DNA from: a virus
Taxonomy: Duplodnaviria > Heunggongvirae > Uroviricota > Caudoviricetes
DNA: 52,849 bases
Strand: one strand, 5' to 3'
Virus record (IMG/VR): IMGVR_UViG_3300045988_151019
Shown: piece after piece, positions 1-7,047 of the stretch
Position numbering within the stretch: the stretch's first letter is position 1
How the letters are laid out: every line of letters starts with the position of its first letter
Program-made: the position numbers and the translations under genes
The notes under the pieces: model-generated
Database searches by the model: none
Told to the model about the DNA's origin: nothing
The model's input: only the letters and a program-made list of their open reading frames with translations

Positions 1-518
1 CCATCCGAGATAACACCTTCGTAATACTCACGCTGCTCGTTGAGTTTTGATTTTGCGGCTTCCAGCGCCGCAACCAATTCGTCTACAGTTCCGGCAGCTT
101 GCAGTGCGTAATCGGTAATAGACATCTCATGATCAATTTCAGTACCGTTCTCATTAGTTGAGGTGATAGCAAAAAAATCAGAGTCGATTTCGTTATCAGC
201 TAAGTGGCGTAGCGTATCGGCAACAAGCTGACCGTTTTCGATTAACAGCTTCCCTACCGTTAGCGCAATATCCTCGTTCTCCTGGTCGCGAGATTTGATG
301 TATTGCTGGTTTCTTTCCCGTTCATCCAGTAGCGCCAGCACGGTTTCTGGTCCGGCCAGAATTTTGAAGGCGTTGAGCGCATCAATATCAACACCGCTAT
401 CTTTAAGTTCCTGCTCGCTTATCAGATCATCATCAACTGGCAACATTAACAGGCGTTCCATTGCCGGAATTGCACGCTCTGCCGCCTCACGCAGTGCCTG
501 ATAGTTAATTTTGGTCAT
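1..518 (-). CDS. Ea22-like modular phage protein, N-terminal part (gene runs off window start)
   Basis: ATG at 518-516, one nt after upstream stop; N-terminus MTKINYQALREAAE matches paralogue at 1783-2481; reading frame open to position 1. Confidence 0.45.
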   Translation of the reverse strand, partial: MTKINYQALREAAERAIPAMERLLMLPVDDDLISEQELKDSGVDIDALNAFKILAGPETVLALLDERERNQQYIKSRDQENEDIALTVGKLLIENGQLVADTLRHLADNEIDSDFFAITSTNENGTEIDHEMSITDYALQAAGTVDELVAALEAAKSKLNEQREYYEGVISD

Positions 519-519
519 A

Positions 520-819
520 TCACATCACCCTGAATCCGTTGCATTTACGTAAAAAATCGCAGATATAGCCCTTCATTTTTTCGTGCCAATCTCGATCATT
601 CCCATTGCACCAACCATCAGGTGGAGTCCAGTTTTCTATCAGAGCAGCCATTTTCTTTGCTTTCGCCGGAGTAGCTGTTGCGGTATCGCAGTAATGACGA
701 GTGTCAACCAACGTATCCATACCATCGATATCAAGTACGCAAAACCATGTGTGATTCGGCATTTCAACAGATGGTATTTGTTGCCCACGTCGACGTTTAT
801 CAATAAGACATACAGTCAC
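520..819 (-). CDS. hypothetical Cys-rich protein (99 aa)
   Basis: ORF track; GTG start overlaps upstream stop (GTGA), AGGAGG 7 nt upstream inside junction cassette. Confidence 0.4.
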   Translation of the reverse strand: MTVCLIDKRRRGQQIPSVEMPNHTWFCVLDIDGMDTLVDTRHYCDTATATPAKAKKMAALIENWTPPDGWCNGNDRDWHEKMKGYICDFLRKCNGFRVM

Positions 820-1499
820 TGGTTGCCTCCTTTGCGAAGCTGTTCAGCAATACTTACGCATATCTCTGCGCCTCTAATCAGCCCCGGAACGTTCTTGTTT
901 GGCCCAACTTCACCATCGACAAAATCAATCATCGCGTTACGAGCCATATCCACGCCCTGCGCACGCACTTCAGCCAGGAAAGCATCGGTGGCTGGCGTTT
1001 CCCGTGAACGGTAAGACCAAACAATGTCGTCTGTTTCACTGGGTTCTTCATGAGAGCAATTTGGGCAGACAGCAGTACAACCAGCATGATCTTCTATGAG
1101 CATCTTCAGCCACGAGTTCTCCTCCGCCAGCGTCACGCGACTGGCCTCCAGTTCTGCTACGCGCTGTTTTGCAGCATCCAGTTCAATCGACAATTTTTCC
1201 AACTGCTCTTGATGCTTCTTGTATTCCTGATATGCGTGCCAAGACTGACCTTTGCGCACACTATCAGTGATATCAGTAATCTGTTCTGGTGTTAGCGTGG
1301 TCAGTGGCTGTGATGGGAAAATAAGCACTTTCCCGGAATCCCAATCAAAACCAGCGTGAATTGACTGAACCTCAACTGAAGGTGTTGAACCAATGCTGCC
1401 AGGCGAATGAACAACGATTGTTACATCCATATCGCGACGATGGCTGTGGTTGTTGGACAAAATACGATTCACCAACTCAGAAAATTTGGAAAATTTCAT
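816..1499 (-). CDS. Ea22-like modular protein (227 aa)
   Basis: ORF track; C-terminal module ETPATDAFLAEVRAQG...IAEQLRKGGNQ shared with 1783-2481; coiled-coil middle; CxxC motif. Confidence 0.5.
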   Translation of the reverse strand: MKFSKFSELVNRILSNNHSHRRDMDVTIVVHSPGSIGSTPSVEVQSIHAGFDWDSGKVLIFPSQPLTTLTPEQITDITDSVRKGQSWHAYQEYKKHQEQLEKLSIELDAAKQRVAELEASRVTLAEENSWLKMLIEDHAGCTAVCPNCSHEEPSETDDIVWSYRSRETPATDAFLAEVRAQGVDMARNAMIDFVDGEVGPNKNVPGLIRGAEICVSIAEQLRKGGNQ

Positions 1500-1819
1500 G
1501 CTGATTCCCCTTTCTCTGCTCTCTCCTGTCGGAACATCACTATCATCAGGTCGCCTTTTGTCGCTATCCTGGCTGTTGTACCTGGTTCAATGCGGCTAAG
1601 CTCAAATGCGTCATAGAACGCTTCTAATGCCTTCTGGCGTAGTTCCTGTTTGCGCCGTTTTTTCCACTGTTTTAGGAAAATGGAACCCAGCCATCGCCAT
1701 GTACGGGACATGATGTAAAGCCAACCGAGAAGTGCCAGACCGGTATTTAGGAGCGTATCGATCGTTATTGTCGTGTCGATATTCACTGGCTGCTTCCTTT
1801 GCGAATCTGTTCCGCCCAT
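1496..1819 (-). CDS. small membrane protein (likely GTG start near 1786)
   Basis: ORF track; hydrophobic helix GLALLGWLYIM; ATGA overlap with downstream gene; SD-like AAGGAAG before GTG. Confidence 0.35.
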   Translation of the reverse strand: MGGTDSQRKQPVNIDTTITIDTLLNTGLALLGWLYIMSRTWRWLGSIFLKQWKKRRKQELRQKALEAFYDAFELSRIEPGTTARIATKGDLMIVMFRQERAEKGESA

Positions 1820-2481
1820 TCTTCAAGGGATTTCTCCGCATATTCACCAGACAGGCCATCAATCGGATGCGCTTCATTAGCCAACTCTTCTTTCGCTGAC
1901 AAAATCATGCGTGTAACGTCGAAAACTTCACGCAAAGACTTATTGATAAATCCGTGATTGAACGCAGCAGCAAGACGGCTGGCGGTATAGTTAATCCCCT
2001 CGTTGCGTGCTTCCGCACGAATTTCAGCCAGAAAAGCATCGGTAGCTGGAGTTTCGCTGTGGTGCAGGGCATCGTTGATAATCATTGCAGCAACTCCGGC
2101 CTGCCCTGCATCCGTGACCGACACATGCTCAAGAGTTACGGCCATTGCGTGTTTCAGCCCGGCGTTCTCTGCCACCAGCGCCGCGAGATTAGTCTCAAGC
2201 TCTGCAATTCGACACATAGCATCAATATTTGTGTCCTCCAGGCACTTAATTTCACCAAGCAGCTCCAGTGCAACCTTTGGGTTGAACGCGGCAACATGAC
2301 GAGCGTTGTTCTCTGCATTTTTCTGTCCATCAAAGCCGGTCCATTTGATAACGTCTTCACATCGTTCATCACCGGGCGTGTGCACCGCATAAGTACCAGT
2401 ATCCGTCGAAATAAATGCGACCCATTCGTCTGGTGTTGCCTTTTCTGCCGCCTCACGCAGTACCTGATAGTTAATTGTCAT
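1783..2481 (-). CDS. Ea22-like modular protein (about 232 aa)
   Basis: ORF track 1783-2490; ATG at 2481 overlaps upstream stop (ATGA); N-terminus MTINYQVLREAAEKATPDEW; C-terminus EQIRKGSSQ. Confidence 0.5.
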   Translation of the reverse strand: MTINYQVLREAAEKATPDEWVAFISTDTGTYAVHTPGDERCEDVIKWTGFDGQKNAENNARHVAAFNPKVALELLGEIKCLEDTNIDAMCRIAELETNLAALVAENAGLKHAMAVTLEHVSVTDAGQAGVAAMIINDALHHSETPATDAFLAEIRAEARNEGINYTASRLAAAFNHGFINKSLREVFDVTRMILSAKEELANEAHPIDGLSGEYAEKSLEEWAEQIRKGSSQ

Positions 2482-3158
2482 TCTCGCCATCCTTCACAGT
2501 TGTAATCACTACAGCCTTCAAAATCATATGGGCTGTACTGCCAGGTAATTTTTCCGCAATGCGGACAATTCCAACGCACCTTCCCGCTTCGCGACTTCTT
2601 TCTTCTGTTCTGCTTTTTCAACCAGTCAGGCATGACCAAACCTGCGCCCTGAACCATTGTTCTGCGGTTAAAGTTATTGATATTGAACGTCCGGCGCTTT
2701 GCTGAATCAGCAATGGAAAATGGCAACCAAACTATTCCTGGTTCGTTTTTGTTGGCGACGCTAAAGATGGTCGCTTTACTGAAGTCATCTGTTGGCAATC
2801 CACCGTGTTGAAGCCAGTAAACATCGTTGCCGTTCCAGCTACCTTTTTTGTAGGCCACATACGCAGTGCAATCTGACTCAATCAGGCTTTCTGTAGGGAT
2901 GTACTGGCAATCAACGTGCCACACAGCCATTGCATCCACGCTATCAGCGCAAACAGGCTGATCGATATCTCGTCCACAATTCCAGGCTTTTTGGGCTTCT
3001 TCCAGCGTGTAAACATGAGCGCGATCGATATCAGAACTGTAACCATTGCCGTTATGGCAATGGAATGAGGCGTTATTACCCACAGTTTCACGCAAGCACA
3101 TCATGTAAAAACGGTTACTCACTGGTTGCCTCCTTGGCGGAGTTGCGCTGCGATGCAT
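2478..3158 (-). CDS. zinc-ribbon protein (C-terminal CPHCG...CSDYNC); probable true start GTG at 3122
   Basis: ORF track; AGGAGG then GTG inside junction cassette; Cys/His-rich. Confidence 0.4.
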   Translation of the reverse strand: MHRSATPPRRQPVSNRFYMMCLRETVGNNASFHCHNGNGYSSDIDRAHVYTLEEAQKAWNCGRDIDQPVCADSVDAMAVWHVDCQYIPTESLIESDCTAYVAYKKGSWNGNDVYWLQHGGLPTDDFSKATIFSVANKNEPGIVWLPFSIADSAKRRTFNINNFNRRTMVQGAGLVMPDWLKKQNRRKKSRSGKVRWNCPHCGKITWQYSPYDFEGCSDYNCEGWRE

Positions 3159-3358
3159 GAAAAAAAAGACTCCCGAGTGTGACAGTTAAGAGCTGGTGCG
3201 AACGCCGCGTTAAGAACGGCGGCATCACAGCCGTCATCAATATAGAGCGCAATTTTTTTCTCCAGGCGCGCTTTGGCTTCCTGCAGCTGCATACCCCGGC
3301 ACGCACGCGGGATATAATCAGCAATTTGAGCGATAGCTTTTTCGTTCTGTTTAAACAT
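3119..3358 (-). CDS. small protein carrying the Ea22-like C-terminal tail (AAQLRQGGNQ); possible remnant module
   Basis: ORF track; third copy of junction cassette at its 3' end. Confidence 0.4.
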   Translation of the reverse strand: MFKQNEKAIAQIADYIPRACRGMQLQEAKARLEKKIALYIDDGCDAAVLNAAFAPALNCHTRESFFSCIAAQLRQGGNQ

Positions 3359-3554
3359 GCTTCACCTCGATAGGCTTGATGGTGTCTAACAGCAGTCGAC
3401 GGCGCGTATTTTCTGCAAAGTGGCGGCGTCCGGTATCTTTGTGGTAAAACTCATTTTTGCCGACGACCCACATCCGCTCTGTTTGGTGCAGTTTTTTTAC
3501 CTTCGGGCCATCTTTGGTGATCACGGTACCGGTATGGGTTTTTACGATTGTCAT
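3351..3554 (-). CDS. hypothetical small basic protein (67 aa)
   Basis: ORF track; ATGA overlap with upstream PAPS-reductase-like gene. Confidence 0.35.
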   Translation of the reverse strand: MTIVKTHTGTVITKDGPKVKKLHQTERMWVVGKNEFYHKDTGRRHFAENTRRRLLLDTIKPIEVKHV

Positions 3555-4429
3555 TCCACTACCTCTTCGAATTTCAACTCCAATTGGTCACCCCAGATTT
3601 CACATGATTCGGAACACGAACCAGTATCAAACCGCTTGGCCAGCACCATCGCCTGATACAAATTTCTGTAGTCACTGTCGGCATACATTCTGGCAATCCC
3701 GTCAAGCGTCAGGTGGCCACGGTACATAACGTCTTTACCTGTTCTGCGATGACCATCCCTGACGTGTTTGCCTGTAACCAGTTCATTAAAAACCCGCATC
3801 AGACCTGGTTCGTCTTTACATGCAAGCCCCAGCTTTTGCGTTGACTTTTTGATGCAAAAAACACAGTTCCCGAGGTGCTCCGGGATTTGCAAATCAAAAG
3901 GTTGTTTTCGCCACCACCGGATAACATCCGACTTATCAAAATCTGACAGTTCGGCAAGATACCGGACGCCCGGTTTCGGTTTCAGCCTACGGGGTTCGTC
4001 CGCACGAATACCGAGCCATGTGATGTAATTCCCTCGCCCAAAATGGTCATCGCAATATTTCGTGAAAGGGGTGAGTTTTAGCCTGTCGGTACAGAACGCG
4101 CCGCCGATGTATGGCGTACCGTACTTTTTAACCATGTCCATAAACGGTTTAAGCACCGGCATTCGCGTCTGAATATCCTTTGGTTCCCATTCCGTATAAC
4201 CATTTGGCTGCCCAAGTTCTGGATTTATATCGACCTGCAACACCGTTAGCGGTACGTTCCAGAACTTCACAACCTCACGAATAAAGCGATACGTCAGAGG
4301 ATGTTCACAGCCGGTATCCATAAAAATGAAATGGACGCTAGCGCCAGCTTTTCGCTGTGCTTCCATCAGATGAACGAGATAAGCCGATGTTCGTCCACCT
4401 GAAAAGCTGACGACTTGATGCATACTCAC
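3551..4429 (-). CDS. PAPS reductase-like (PP-loop ATP pyrophosphatase family) protein
   Basis: N-terminal SFSGGRTSAY PP-loop motif; C-terminal Cys cluster (NCVFC, CSESC); 292 aa. Confidence 0.7.
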   Translation of the reverse strand: MSMHQVVSFSGGRTSAYLVHLMEAQRKAGASVHFIFMDTGCEHPLTYRFIREVVKFWNVPLTVLQVDINPELGQPNGYTEWEPKDIQTRMPVLKPFMDMVKKYGTPYIGGAFCTDRLKLTPFTKYCDDHFGRGNYITWLGIRADEPRRLKPKPGVRYLAELSDFDKSDVIRWWRKQPFDLQIPEHLGNCVFCIKKSTQKLGLACKDEPGLMRVFNELVTGKHVRDGHRRTGKDVMYRGHLTLDGIARMYADSDYRNLYQAMVLAKRFDTGSCSESCEIWGDQLELKFEEVVE

Positions 4430-4432
4430 GGT

Positions 4433-5011
4433 TTATTCCTGAATGCGCTTAAACTCGATTACCCATACCAACGGGTTAGATAGCCAGTTATCCTGCCCGT
4501 AAATACTGCGCCAGATATCACCAAAACCAACGCGATAAACAGCTTCAGATGGCGTAATCTTGTACGTCGCCGGAGTTGCGCCTTCTGCTTTAGCATCTGC
4601 CTCGCTCATGTCATGCAGCCGTTCCACACGCACGTCGGTAATTTCCAGAAGAATGCGCGATGCCCAGCGCGGCATGTGAATTGATGGCGTCCACTTTTCT
4701 GATACTGGTTTATTACAAACCTCGACCGGAACCCGGTGCGTTTGTTCTGTCCAGGAGTTACGCACGCTTGCGCGATAAACCAGCGTTGCGACGTCCGTCG
4801 CTTTGCCATGTACCCGGTAGGTTTCGCGAACCCAAATACGATCGCCCGGTTGACCATATGGACAATGCTTAGCAAGCAACTCTGCGGCCACTGCCCGTCC
4901 ATAGAATTTTTCTTCAACAATCCTGCGAGTCTGTGTTTTATTCCCGCCAAGAATTGCCCGGACCATCTCATCGTTGAAAATCATGCCGCGCTCTTTCACT
5001 TCGCCTTTCAT
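4433..5011 (-). CDS. ASCH-domain protein
   Basis: ILGGNKTQTRR motif typical of ASCH/PUA-like fold; 4 nt after upstream gene; GGGGGA SD. Confidence 0.55.
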   Translation of the reverse strand: MKGEVKERGMIFNDEMVRAILGGNKTQTRRIVEEKFYGRAVAAELLAKHCPYGQPGDRIWVRETYRVHGKATDVATLVYRASVRNSWTEQTHRVPVEVCNKPVSEKWTPSIHMPRWASRILLEITDVRVERLHDMSEADAKAEGATPATYKITPSEAVYRVGFGDIWRSIYGQDNWLSNPLVWVIEFKRIQE

Positions 5012-5189
5012 GCATCCCCCTTACCCATGCGCGACGATGCCGCCAAAAGTGATAGAGAACAGCCAGAAATAGATCGCGGCCATAATGATTTTGAATGCCG
5101 TGTTCATATTTTCAGCTCCTGTGATTGATTGGATACATGCCGCGCCTTGCGGCATGTTTTTATTTTCACTTTCTCTGTTTTAAAAATCA

Positions 5190-5206
5190 AGATTTATTAG
5201 AGCAAT
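5190..5206 (-). promoter_or_regulatory. C1-repressor-type operator motif (plus strand AGATTTATTAGAGCAAT)
   Basis: 16/17 match to consensus ATTGCTCTAATAAATTT as I recall it; lies between two leftward genes. Confidence 0.55.
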
Positions 5207-5712
5207 TATTGTTGGTGGAGAAGCGCGTTTTCATACTCCCTGACCATTAACGTAAGTACGCCGTGACTCCTGAAAACACGCGCCACTTCAATCTTATCTT
5301 CCAGCGCGAACGCAATTTTACTTAGACCAATTTTCTTCAGGAGATCAATCTTTGCTGGACCATCATTTCTGTCATCGGTGGCAGGACGCATAGATAGCAA
5401 AGGCTCAGCCCCGTTTGTTACGTACTTCCGCAGCCAGGCTCGTGTTTTATCCCTTGCGATCTCACAGCGCCCGGTTACAAACCAGACCGTGTAAACGTTA
5501 AATAACTGGCGCACCATATCAATAACCGGAGTGATGGGAGTATCGGTGTCACAGGCGAGATTAAACTCGTTCCAGTCCTTTGTTAATGCACCTTTACCTG
5601 GTGGCGGAAGCAAATGCAGTCTGTCTTCAGTTGCCTCTGATATTGTTCCATCAATATCGACTATGACGATATACGGACGTTCCTGGTGTGCGTGTTTATT
5701 GAAAATACTCAA
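5206..5712 (-). CDS. HAD-superfamily phosphatase (possibly the P1 acid phosphatase Pap)
   Basis: Motif I VIVDIDGTI near N-terminus; 168 aa. Confidence 0.55.
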   Translation of the reverse strand: MSIFNKHAHQERPYIVIVDIDGTISEATEDRLHLLPPPGKGALTKDWNEFNLACDTDTPITPVIDMVRQLFNVYTVWFVTGRCEIARDKTRAWLRKYVTNGAEPLLSMRPATDDRNDGPAKIDLLKKIGLSKIAFALEDKIEVARVFRSHGVLTLMVREYENALLHQQ

Positions 5713-5784
5713 ATGCCCTCCTCATTGGACGAAAAAAATGCTGGTGGGCGCACTCCACCAGCATTAAAAGTGACACTGTAACTA

Positions 5785-7047
5785 TCAGCGGACGTAAATA
5801 GTGCCGCCGTTCTCTTTTTCCCATGCATCGCTACGTGCATAGCAAACATCGAGAAGTCTTCTTGCCGCTGTTTCCTCTAAACCCAATTCGACAACCAACT
5901 GCTCATGACGGCGGGTAACCACATCAAACAGGGTATGCAACCCTTTAGTTGCCAGATCATCAATGAATTCCGGTTCGAACGGCAGCTCTGTATCTGCCAA
6001 CATAACCTCTTGCGCCCACTCAACTCGACGGACCAATTCCGGGCGGCGGCTTTCCATCTCTTTACAGATCAATTCATGGAAGAACTCTACCCAACCTTCC
6101 GGCTGGAACTCGCGGAAAATTGCCAACGGCTGGAAGTTTGGCATCAACCATTCGTTGATACGGATATCAATGGCATAGCCCATGTCGCAGCAGAACTGAT
6201 AAGCAAAGTCCAGCTTAGAAACGATATAAGGACGCTCGTTATTGAACTCTTTAGGCGATGAGATCCCATAAGCCAGGAGGCGCGGGAAGAAGGAGATTTG
6301 CCCTAACGTCGGATGAAGTTTGCTTGCAGGGAAACGGCGCTCAGTAATGCCATACATTTCCTTCTTGAGCGTCGCAAATTTGGCATTCTCATTAACCAGC
6401 GCGGTAACCTCTGCTTTTTTATTAGCAAATGCCACGCGCGCTTCGCTTGCATCTTTAATAGTTTTTTTGAGCTGTTGGTTAAGGTCGGCGACCTGCTTAC
6501 GCAGTTCCTGTCGCTCGCTTTTAGCTTTGTTATAGCGTTTCTCAAGGTTAAAAGGATCAAGTTTCATGATCTCTTTATATTGAGATTTTAGCGTTGAAAT
6601 CTGTGAGTTCCGCAGTTCAACCATCGCGGTCATTTCATTGAGTTTTGTTTCCAGCTCAATGCTTATACGTTCGGCATTATCAGCACGCTGGTTGGCGTCA
6701 TGCGTCGCATCGTCGATCGCGTCCTGTTGCTGGCGTTTCAAATGTTCAATTTGTAGCTGAAGCTCTTCAATTTCTTTACCCTTCAGACCGAGATCCAACT
6801 GCATATTTTCAGCTGCATCTACCAGGGAGTTATGGCTATCAGCTTCTGCGTTATAAACATCAATAAGCTGTGCGTGAAGCATCTCCGCTGACTGAACCGC
6901 ATTATCAAAAAAACGCGCTGTGAGGTCATCACAACTAACGCGGCGTTGCGCGGCCCGGATGTTCTGGATAATGGCCGGGATACCGGCATTCAGGACGTCA
7001 GGGATAGATACATTTTCGATTGATTGGTTTTGTGCTGAAGTGATCAT
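5785..7047 (-). CDS. coiled-coil protein with C-terminal globular domain, function unknown
   Basis: ORF track 420 aa; heptad-rich residues 60-230; conserved-looking C-terminal half. Confidence 0.55.
   Translation of the reverse strand: MITSAQNQSIENVSIPDVLNAGIPAIIQNIRAAQRRVSCDDLTARFFDNAVQSAEMLHAQLIDVYNAEADSHNSLVDAAENMQLDLGLKGKEIEELQLQIEHLKRQQQDAIDDATHDANQRADNAERISIELETKLNEMTAMVELRNSQISTLKSQYKEIMKLDPFNLEKRYNKAKSERQELRKQVADLNQQLKKTIKDASEARVAFANKKAEVTALVNENAKFATLKKEMYGITERRFPASKLHPTLGQISFFPRLLAYGISSPKEFNNERPYIVSKLDFAYQFCCDMGYAIDIRINEWLMPNFQPLAIFREFQPEGWVEFFHELICKEMESRRPELVRRVEWAQEVMLADTELPFEPEFIDDLATKGLHTLFDVVTRRHEQLVVELGLEETAARRLLDVCYARSDAWEKENGGTIYVR

Follow-up and report, generated by a model that had tools for sequence, protein, structure and literature searches.

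The 52,849-nucleotide stretch of viral DNA analysed here (the window; IMG/VR record IMGVR_UViG_3300045988_151019, Caudoviricetes) is a P1-like phage-plasmid. Near its left end, the minus strand carries an accessory-gene operon in which three gene boundaries, here called J1, J2 and J3, are formed by copies of one short cassette of about 30 nucleotides (nt). In each copy, the last codons of the upstream gene contain a Shine-Dalgarno (SD) sequence and the GTG start of the downstream gene overlaps the upstream stop codon. The three cassettes and the genes that they join are the following:

816 to 845, minus strand: cassette J1, GAACAGCTTCGCAAAGGAGGCAACCAGTGA, consisting of the last nine codons and the TGA of the 227-residue gene, with the SD sequence AAGGAGG and, over the stop, the GTG of the DUF7739 gene at 819-817.
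1783 to 1812, minus strand: cassette J2, GAACAGATTCGCAAAGGAAGCAGCCAGTGA, the tail of the Ead/Ea22-like gene, with the weaker SD sequence AAGGAAG and the GTG of the DUF4752 gene at 1786-1784.
3119 to 3148, minus strand: cassette J3, GCGCAACTCCGCCAAGGAGGCAACCAGTGA, the tail of the 79-residue gene, with the SD sequence AAGGAGG and the GTG of the 214-residue gene at 3122-3120.
816 to 1499, minus strand: gene upstream of J1, 227 residues, no Pfam match, PHROG 368/6026, related in mosaic fashion to Ead/Ea22-like proteins, with which it has a coiled-coil/ETPATDAFLAE segment in common.
520 to 819, minus strand: gene downstream of J1, a 99-residue DUF7739 protein with a GTG start.
1783 to 2481, minus strand: gene upstream of J2, a 232-residue Ead/Ea22-like protein (PF13935) with an ATG at 2481 that shares bases with the stop of the 214-residue gene (ATGA).
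1496 to 1786, minus strand: gene downstream of J2, a 96-residue DUF4752 protein with a GTG start.
3119 to 3358, minus strand: gene upstream of J3, 79 residues, PHROG 1344, with no relationship to either of the other upstream proteins beyond the 12-residue tail.
2478 to 3122, minus strand: gene downstream of J3, 214 residues, PHROG 2457, a homologue of P7 upf87.6.

A degenerate 27-mer based on the consensus given in the original prediction, which was made from the sequence of the window, was searched over all 52,849 bp. It matched three times on the plus strand (816-842, 1783-1809 and 3119-3145), as against none of 100 dinucleotide-preserving shuffles, and a chance or low-complexity match was thus rejected. 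A repeat search returned the copies as a single 36-nt family (816-851, 1783-1818 and 3119-3154), in which identity to the reference copy is 81%. The positions originally assigned to the copies were exact in case of 1783, whereas 813 and 3114 were off by 3 and 5 nt. Similarly, a shared C-terminal tail EQLRKGGNQ followed by a stop had been proposed for all three upstream proteins, which is true of J1, whereas the tails at J2 (EQIRKGSSQ) and J3 (AQLRQGGNQ) differ. The proposed SD sequence and overlapping GTG start are visible in the sequence: in all three copies, an SD-like AAGGAGG (J1 and J3) or AAGGAAG (J2) is followed by 6 nt and then by a GTG overlapping the TGA (GTGA). The same genes with the same three GTG starts are called by RefSeq/PGAP on a 100%-identical E. 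coli plasmid, NZ_CP149562.1. When the junctions within the window were compared, no likeness was seen beyond approximately 30-36 nt, and the longest exact runs shared were 17 nt for J1/J3, 11 nt for J1/J2 and 7 nt for J2/J3. No inverted repeat was seen in the sequence of the cassette. Folding of the three 100-nt junctions was not better than that of shuffled controls (z = -1.29, 0.07 and 0.33), nor was a fold common to the three found, and a conserved RNA structure at the junction was rejected on these grounds.

Three otherwise different proteins had been described as sharing a terminus. This applies to the 79-residue protein, which a Pfam search did not identify as a member of PF13935, but the 227- and 232-residue proteins are mosaic relatives of each other, having in common a coiled-coil/ETPATDAFLAE segment (BLASTP E 6e-8) and PHROG 368. 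The 232-residue protein scores 84.7 bits against PF13935 (cut-off 27) and is therefore a family member. A 42-nt repeat with 88% identity, at 960-1001 and 2014-2055, encodes ETPATDAFLAE(V/I)RA inside these two proteins, and the ETPATDAFLAE block marks a domain-level mosaic joint within Ead/Ea22-like proteins.

Using an exact-pattern scan of IMG/VR with CGCMAAGGARGCARCCAGTGA, the cassette was found in at least 120 loci. The matches listed, together with the window and its three copies, amount to at least 134 junctions. In IMG/VR, the core, CGCAAAGGAGGCAACCAGTGA, joins upstream proteins of at least five unrelated groups (15 or more C-terminal modules) to no fewer than 11 downstream families. Open reading frames ending in the cassette were grouped by BLASTP among the matches listed into mosaic Ead/Ea22-like proteins (99 of 134), a 55-residue protein (24), the 79-residue protein (6) and two singletons, and those starting at the cassette GTG into at least 11 groups (Ead/Ea22-like, DUF7739, DUF4752, the 214-residue protein and seven others). 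Single-linkage BLASTP merges the mosaic Ead/Ea22-like proteins, so that the figure of five groups understates diversity, and the 20 residues before the tail were used instead. By this measure, at least 15 C-terminal modules and at least 12 N-termini occur in many combinations among the matches listed. The tail RKGGNQ followed by a stop has at least 35 distinct upstream and at least 57 distinct downstream contexts. The DUF7739 gene alone is preceded in other phages by at least three other upstream modules, and for homologues of the downstream genes similarity begins exactly at the GTG, whatever lies upstream.

The two ends of the cassette behave differently. The first 12 nt co-vary with the upstream module, being GCCCAGCTTCGC after modules ending in EWLVDFA, GAACAGATTCGC after SLEEWA and GCGATGTGGCGC after NKYLN, whereas the last 18 nt, AAAGGAGGCAACCAGTGA, are identical everywhere among the matches listed. 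The lambdoid phage HK620 has the cassette at its hkaH/hkaG junction (position 3507) and the Stx phage PA2 carries it as well; the first 14 kb of 933W contain no copy. In E. coli lambdoid prophages generally, HK620 and Stx phages included, the core of about 21 nt recurs at a great number of junctions within accessory arrays equivalent to the present operon. Scanning GTDB with one genome per species resulted in 15 matches, one in Escherichia and 14 in unrelated lineages of metagenome-assembled genomes. A hand estimate from pattern degeneracy and database size gives about 17 matches expected by chance. As 14 of the 15 matches are thus close to the chance number, a wide taxonomic distribution was rejected and, judged from these scans, the cassette is restricted to prophages and plasmids of the Escherichia type. 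Another recurrent junction cassette, ATTCGCATCAAAGGAGAGTGATATG, with the tail IRIKGE before the stop and the SD sequence AAGGAG, was observed 66 times in the IMG/VR loci collected, in 18 upstream and 36 downstream contexts; accessory arrays therefore use more than one connector. A search for ATTCGCATCAAAGGAGAGTGATATG in the window found no copy.

IMG/VR was also scanned with the back-translated tail, MGNAARGGNGGNAAYCARTGA, which corresponds to (R/S)KGGNQ and a stop with every synonymous codon accepted. The 120 matches listed comprise 77 with the canonical 21-mer, all at already known loci, approximately 35 variants and approximately 8 probable chance matches in unrelated contexts. The variants are single-base changes, with one two-base change, and fall in the arginine codon (CGT in 15, CGA in 4 and AGC in 7), the second glycine codon (GGT in 5, GGA in 1), the glutamine codon (CAA in 3, converting GTGA to ATGA) and the asparagine codon (AAT in 1, in an AGC locus). 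No changes in A-GGA-GG were found among the approximately 112 true junctions, though glycine has four codons. The same bases are also read in another frame, giving the tails EATSEQD or ATSERN before the stop in 19 cases among the loci listed. In P7, upf87.4 crosses the core in another frame with its stop 4 nt further on (P7 locus 3835-3859). Such other-frame tails apparently stem from indels of 1-2 nt just upstream of the core. Further, non-synonymous changes in the tail are tolerated (N to S, N to K, R to S, K to Q and G to S).

These results support a nucleotide sequence, above all its SD part, as the entity that is conserved. The peptide tail is a by-product of the linker, as had been suggested, because the K-G-G in LRKGGNQ is AAA-GGA-GGC read in frame: one nucleotide version dominates, other frames occur and residue changes are tolerated. 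Conservation at the peptide level was rejected on the basis of the codon-degenerate scan and the other-frame tails, and a tail motif lacking a conserved nucleotide cassette is not what that scan returned.

Local BLAST of the window against the related phages P7, Ro157c2YLVW, 813R1 and PA2 was used to locate the ends of homology. Homology to Ro157c2YLVW covers 1117-2476 and starts again from 3118, that to P7 spans 2445-3133 and that to PA2 begins at 3115, and the breakpoints at J3 relative to all three phages thus lie within 3115-3133. Over 123 loci, the ends of high-scoring segment pairs pile up at all three cassettes. The J2 junction is identical in Ro157c2YLVW. The 214-residue module is present in the window and in P7 and absent from Ro157c2YLVW, 813R1 and PA2. 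In the latter three phages the order is 79-residue gene, cassette, Ead gene; in the window it is 79-residue gene, cassette, 214-residue gene, Ead gene; and in P7 it is upf87.4, core, 214-residue gene, Ead gene. J3 hence combines the upstream side of the Ro157c2YLVW/PA2 junction with the downstream side of the P7 junction. In 813R1, the module found upstream of J2 (EEWAEQIRKG) is instead followed by DUF7739, the gene downstream of J1, and the change from one to the other occurs within the cassette. The other flank of the 214-residue module is also a conserved sequence:

2444 to 2481, minus strand: conserved 5' end of the Ead/Ea22-like gene, ATGACAATTAACTATCAGGTACTGCGTGAGGCGGCAGA.

Most of it recurs as a 33-nt repeat with 97% identity (2444-2476 and 478-510, the latter in the Ead-like gene starting at 518) that encodes MT(K)INYQ(A/V)LREAAE. 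In P7, Ro157c2YLVW, PA2 and HK620, Ead-like genes open with this 33-nt sequence irrespective of what lies before them, and from its distribution it can be said to behave as a second boundary sequence.

Linkage across every operon junction was determined using 150-nt flanks and their adjacency in 170 related loci. The flanks found in the window were adjacent in 3 of 54 upstream occurrences at cassette junctions compared with 39 of 63 at the other operon junctions, where linkage ranged from 100% (at 3351 and 3551) to 25-35% (two junctions preceding Ead-like genes). BLAST breakpoints, recombinant combinations and low flank linkage are all in agreement with the prediction that module boundaries coincide with the cassette. 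The prediction had also named the downstream small genes as what is exchanged; reassortment at the cassette was indeed seen, but the exchanged genes are not restricted to small ones.

Taken together, the original finding is supported as real and its interpretation as essentially right. We consider it likely that the cassette, lying within the last codons of the upstream gene, acts as translation-initiation region for the gene that follows, and that it is both a coupled junction and an exchange patch. The translational-coupling junction marks the point of exchange and probably serves as such. Ribosomes ending at the TGA would reinitiate at the overlapping GTG, aided by the strong SD sequence. 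The core would provide a patch of identity which lets recombination join any upstream module to any downstream gene, most plausibly by phage annealing proteins of the Red-beta/RecT type or by RecA, and joining at the core would preserve the two reading frames as well as the coupling. Selection acting on the SD sequence and the start would keep the patch identical, and the patch would thus stay recombinogenic. The operon of the window would have been assembled by such exchange; the 214-residue gene, for example, is present or absent in related phages exactly between the cassette core and the Ead/Ea22-like 5' end.

The length of identity available for pairing was determined for unrelated junction pairs, defined as pairs whose outer flanks (-80 to -31 upstream and +31 to +80 downstream of the 15-nt core) are unrelated. 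They share exact runs of 20 nt in the median, and these reach at least 23 nt in 34% and at least 31 nt in 11% of pairs. Efficient pairing has been reported to require a minimum of 23-27 bp with Red-beta and of 31-34 bp with RecA (PMC3945230), and RecET can use even shorter matches at low frequency (PMC2327257). Arrays of lambdoid phages are located just downstream of recT/bet and exo genes, and the PA2 array lies directly downstream of recT-like and exonuclease genes. Judged from these sequence data, homologous or short-homology exchange at the cassette is plausible.

Several points weigh against this interpretation. About two-thirds of the unrelated junction pairs share less than 23 nt, and the exact runs among J1, J2 and J3 (17, 11 and 7 nt) are below the published minimal pairing lengths, so that these three copies would seldom recombine with one another. 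Illegitimate recombination followed by selection would likewise place mosaic breakpoints at gene boundaries. The related loci were gathered by searching for the cassette, which introduces an ascertainment bias into both the context counts and the linkage contrast. Junction copies are related by descent and the invariance of the SD sequence among them therefore does not represent independent observations, while the weakened SD sequence of J2 indicates that the element tolerates change. Finally, coupling and the use of the GTG starts are deduced from sequence and annotation.

The main rival explanation takes the cassette as a translation-initiation region and nothing else, devoid of any part in recombination. 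Mosaicism would then result from illegitimate recombination and selection for intact genes, and the shared sequence either from strong selection for a single best combination of SD sequence, spacer and start or from the initiation region hitch-hiking with its moving downstream gene. Illegitimate recombination counts as a standard alternative in the literature, as presented in the passages of PMC3233612 considered here, and this explanation is in line with the exact coincidence of the invariant bases with the SD sequence, the (A/G)AAGG-type SD sequences that other operon junctions have in the last codons of the upstream gene (AAAGGGGAATCAGCATGA and GAAGGATGGCGAGAATGA), the shortness of the runs shared exactly by the window copies (7-17 nt), and the fact that non-cassette junctions reassort somewhat too (linkage of 3/12 at junction K2 and 7/20 at junction K5). 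However, an SD sequence requires neither an identical CAACCA spacer nor GTG over ATG nor CGC AAA, and yet the 21-mer is canonical in 77 of approximately 112 junctions. Hitch-hiking with one partner is not compatible with a core that is found before no fewer than 11 unrelated genes and after no fewer than 15 unrelated modules, the 5' variants stay with the upstream module as expected from crossovers within the cassette, and upstream and downstream flanks are linked far less often across the cassettes than across other junctions. We therefore regard this explanation as unlikely. A functional C-terminal peptide, such as a degradation, localisation or partner-binding tag inherited with a common Ead/Ea22-type domain, with DNA identity reflecting recent ancestry, seems highly improbable. 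Two of the three upstream proteins of the window are mosaic relatives, the Ead/Ea22-like mosaic group makes up 99 of 134 upstream partners among the IMG/VR matches listed, and many upstream proteins end in a longer FA-x-QLRKGGNQ, all of which would suit a tag. Unrelated proteins of 79, 55, 77 and 175 residues carry the tail as well, though, and the nucleotides are retained in another frame with a different peptide. Moreover, residues vary freely (N/S/K, K/Q, G/S and R/S) while synonymous sites in the SD sequence never do, and the similarity between copies stops abruptly approximately 30 nt upstream of the stop.

A short, sharply bounded and highly conserved sequence beside exchangeable genes also bears a superficial resemblance to gene-cassette systems, and the possibility was considered that it has a structural or site-specific function, be it as an RNA hairpin with a regulatory role, as an attC-like site or as a sequence recognised by a recombinase or homing enzyme dedicated to it. 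The folding results at shuffle level, the lack of a common structure and the missing inverted repeat, as described above, argue against it, as does the failure to find a recombinase gene with the array in the window or in annotated relatives. In addition, the sole promoter-like site of the minus strand lies upstream of the operon and the one weak terminator-like match of that strand lies away from every cassette. This explanation has next to no likelihood in our view, and an integron attC site in particular was rejected given that structure, inverted repeat and an integrase in the annotated arrays are all missing. Returning to a coupled junction that doubles as an exchange patch, this reading could be taken further, with the cassette being a standard connector kept partly for promoting exchange. 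Lambdoid prophages and P1-like plasmids would then share a gene-cassette system independent of a dedicated recombinase and operated by annealing proteins, in which genes flanked by the SD/GTGA core and the Ead/Ea22-like 5' end move with frame and coupling kept, possibly as excised circles as for the PeSL cassettes of T4-type phages. The conservation of spacer, GTG and CGC-AAA beyond what an SD sequence needs is compatible with a connector without demonstrating it, and we consider this extension distinctly doubtful.

The cassettes lie in an operon whose overall organization and origin were characterized as well. Its extent and the site at its head are:

1 to 5011, minus strand: accessory-gene operon of ten consecutive genes, running past the left end of the window.
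5190 to 5206, minus strand: C1-operator-like site, ATTGCTCTAATAAATCT, with one mismatch to the consensus used, overlapping a promoter-like site at 5234-5205.

From every stop in the operon, the next start overlaps or falls within 3 nt. For the PAPS-reductase-like gene, two starts come into question: reading in frame, the earliest is a GTG at 4429, 1 nt past the TAA of the ASCH-like gene, whereas PGAP uses 4423 on the identical plasmid. The promoter-like site at 5234-5205 is the sole sigma-70-like match on the minus strand and is located directly upstream of the operon. P7 has its annotated Op(hea) at the position equivalent to the 5190-5234 site, which is the probable repressor-controlled start of the operon. 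On the minus strand of the region scanned, no promoter-like sites were found in or beside the cassettes, and no terminator-like sites were found at the cassettes, the one weak minus-strand match lying inside the PAPS-reductase-like gene. In positions 1-5800 of the window, one sigma-70-like promoter match was observed compared with 7.5 +/- 2.5 in shuffles of that 5.8 kb, and promoter-like sequences thus appear depleted inside the tightly packed operon.

The best matches of the window are P7, SJ46, RCS47, Ro157c2YLVW and E. coli plasmids of 92-98 kb. C1-operator-like sites number 7 in the window where 0.02 would be expected by chance; besides the site at the head of the operon, they are located at 10955, 21378, 21389, 24911, 39560 and 41220. 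Three tRNA genes of P1 type are encoded on the minus strand (18491-18566, 20567-20642 and 20645-20720, with the anticodons CAT, TGT and GTT). Positions 322-5250 are 100% identical to NZ_CP149562.1. Identity with the 100%-identical plasmids ends at 322, inside the leftmost Ead/Ea22-like gene, which on NZ_CP149562.1 is annotated as a pseudogene without its C-terminus and is followed by a DUF551 fragment; this represents a further mosaic joint, located within a gene. Much of the operon is approximately 93% identical to the region that adjoins the recombination genes in PA2 and similar Stx2 lambdoid phages, and its families (Ead/Ea22, DUF4752, DUF7739, PAPS-reductase-like and ASCH-like) are those of lambdoid accessory arrays. 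Of 5,426 complete E. coli genomes, 3,400 have a match to some stretch of the 5.25-kb region, but at least 80% of it is found at one place in 6 records only. The components are common and the present arrangement is rare.

Translationally coupled genes are characterized by overlapping stop and start codons (ATGA or GTGA) and by an SD sequence inside the upstream coding sequence. The cassette shares these features, with AAGGAGG, a 6-nt spacer and GTG over TGA, and the ten genes of the operon are chained in this manner; an SD sequence 5-9 nt before a start that overlaps the upstream stop is present in all three copies. Ordinary coupled junctions are specific for a gene pair, whereas here the same 21 nt are found between dozens of unrelated pairs.

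Short sequences kept at gene boundaries belong to the modular-evolution model of Susskind and Botstein (1978), for which Clark et al. (2001) are reported to have provided evidence from HK620 (both as cited in the parts of PMC3233612 consulted). Like those lambdoid boundary or linker sequences, the cassette is a short sequence conserved at a boundary between unrelated flanks, mosaic breakpoints coincide with it (in a cassette-biased sample), and it is present in the early-left accessory region of lambdoid phages, including the hkaH/hkaG junction of HK620. It therefore belongs to this known class; the idea is old and the mechanism is not new. The present case differs in that three copies occur in one operon of a P1-like phage-plasmid, and our data add frame-independence as well as the finding that the 5' part goes with the upstream module whereas the 3' part is universal. 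A full-text literature search for this particular sequence returned general statements only, with Clark et al. (2001) lying outside the search.

PeSL cassettes of T4-type phages (Arbiol et al. 2010) consist of a sigma-70 early promoter and a stem-loop terminator, are intergenic and mediate modular shuffling (PMC2839356). As in the present case, a small repeated expression signal is located in a hyperplastic region with many non-essential genes, and recombination between its copies shuffles the genes in between, as it probably does here. The PeSL signals, however, act in transcription, whereas the cassette is a translation signal in coding sequence without promoter or stable structure. A cassette of the PeSL type was rejected due to the lack of promoter- or terminator-like sites at the cassettes, folding close to that of shuffles and the position in coding sequence. 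The ea22 genes of Stx phages have been described as mosaic at the level of protein domains in the passages of PMC10834534 available to us. These genes, which belong to the exo-xis region in lambda as well as in Stx phages, share with the present locus the family PF13935 and the type of region, and their mosaic C-terminal domains correspond to the upstream modules found here. In contrast to our description, those passages mention neither a shared nucleotide junction nor a coupling role.

In conclusion, the cassette bears on the long-standing question of whether phage mosaicism arises by homologous exchange at boundary sequences or by illegitimate recombination with subsequent selection. Clear and countable examples of boundary sequences are few, and the cassette represents a well-defined and abundant case whose core has a functional reason for staying identical, as the SD sequence and the initiation codon of the following gene are part of it. 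No new kind of mechanism emerges; the present analysis contributes a sharply defined and very abundant example, shows that it also occurs in a P1-like element and provides evidence that the tail is incidental. An annotation rule follows as well: GTG starts overlapping a TGA should be expected, and tails such as KGGNQ or EATSEQD should be read as linker-encoded and not as functional. The cassette provides a concrete locus at which both models of mosaicism can be separated experimentally, and it shows that accessory genes pass between P1-like phage-plasmids and the prophages of lambdoid phages.

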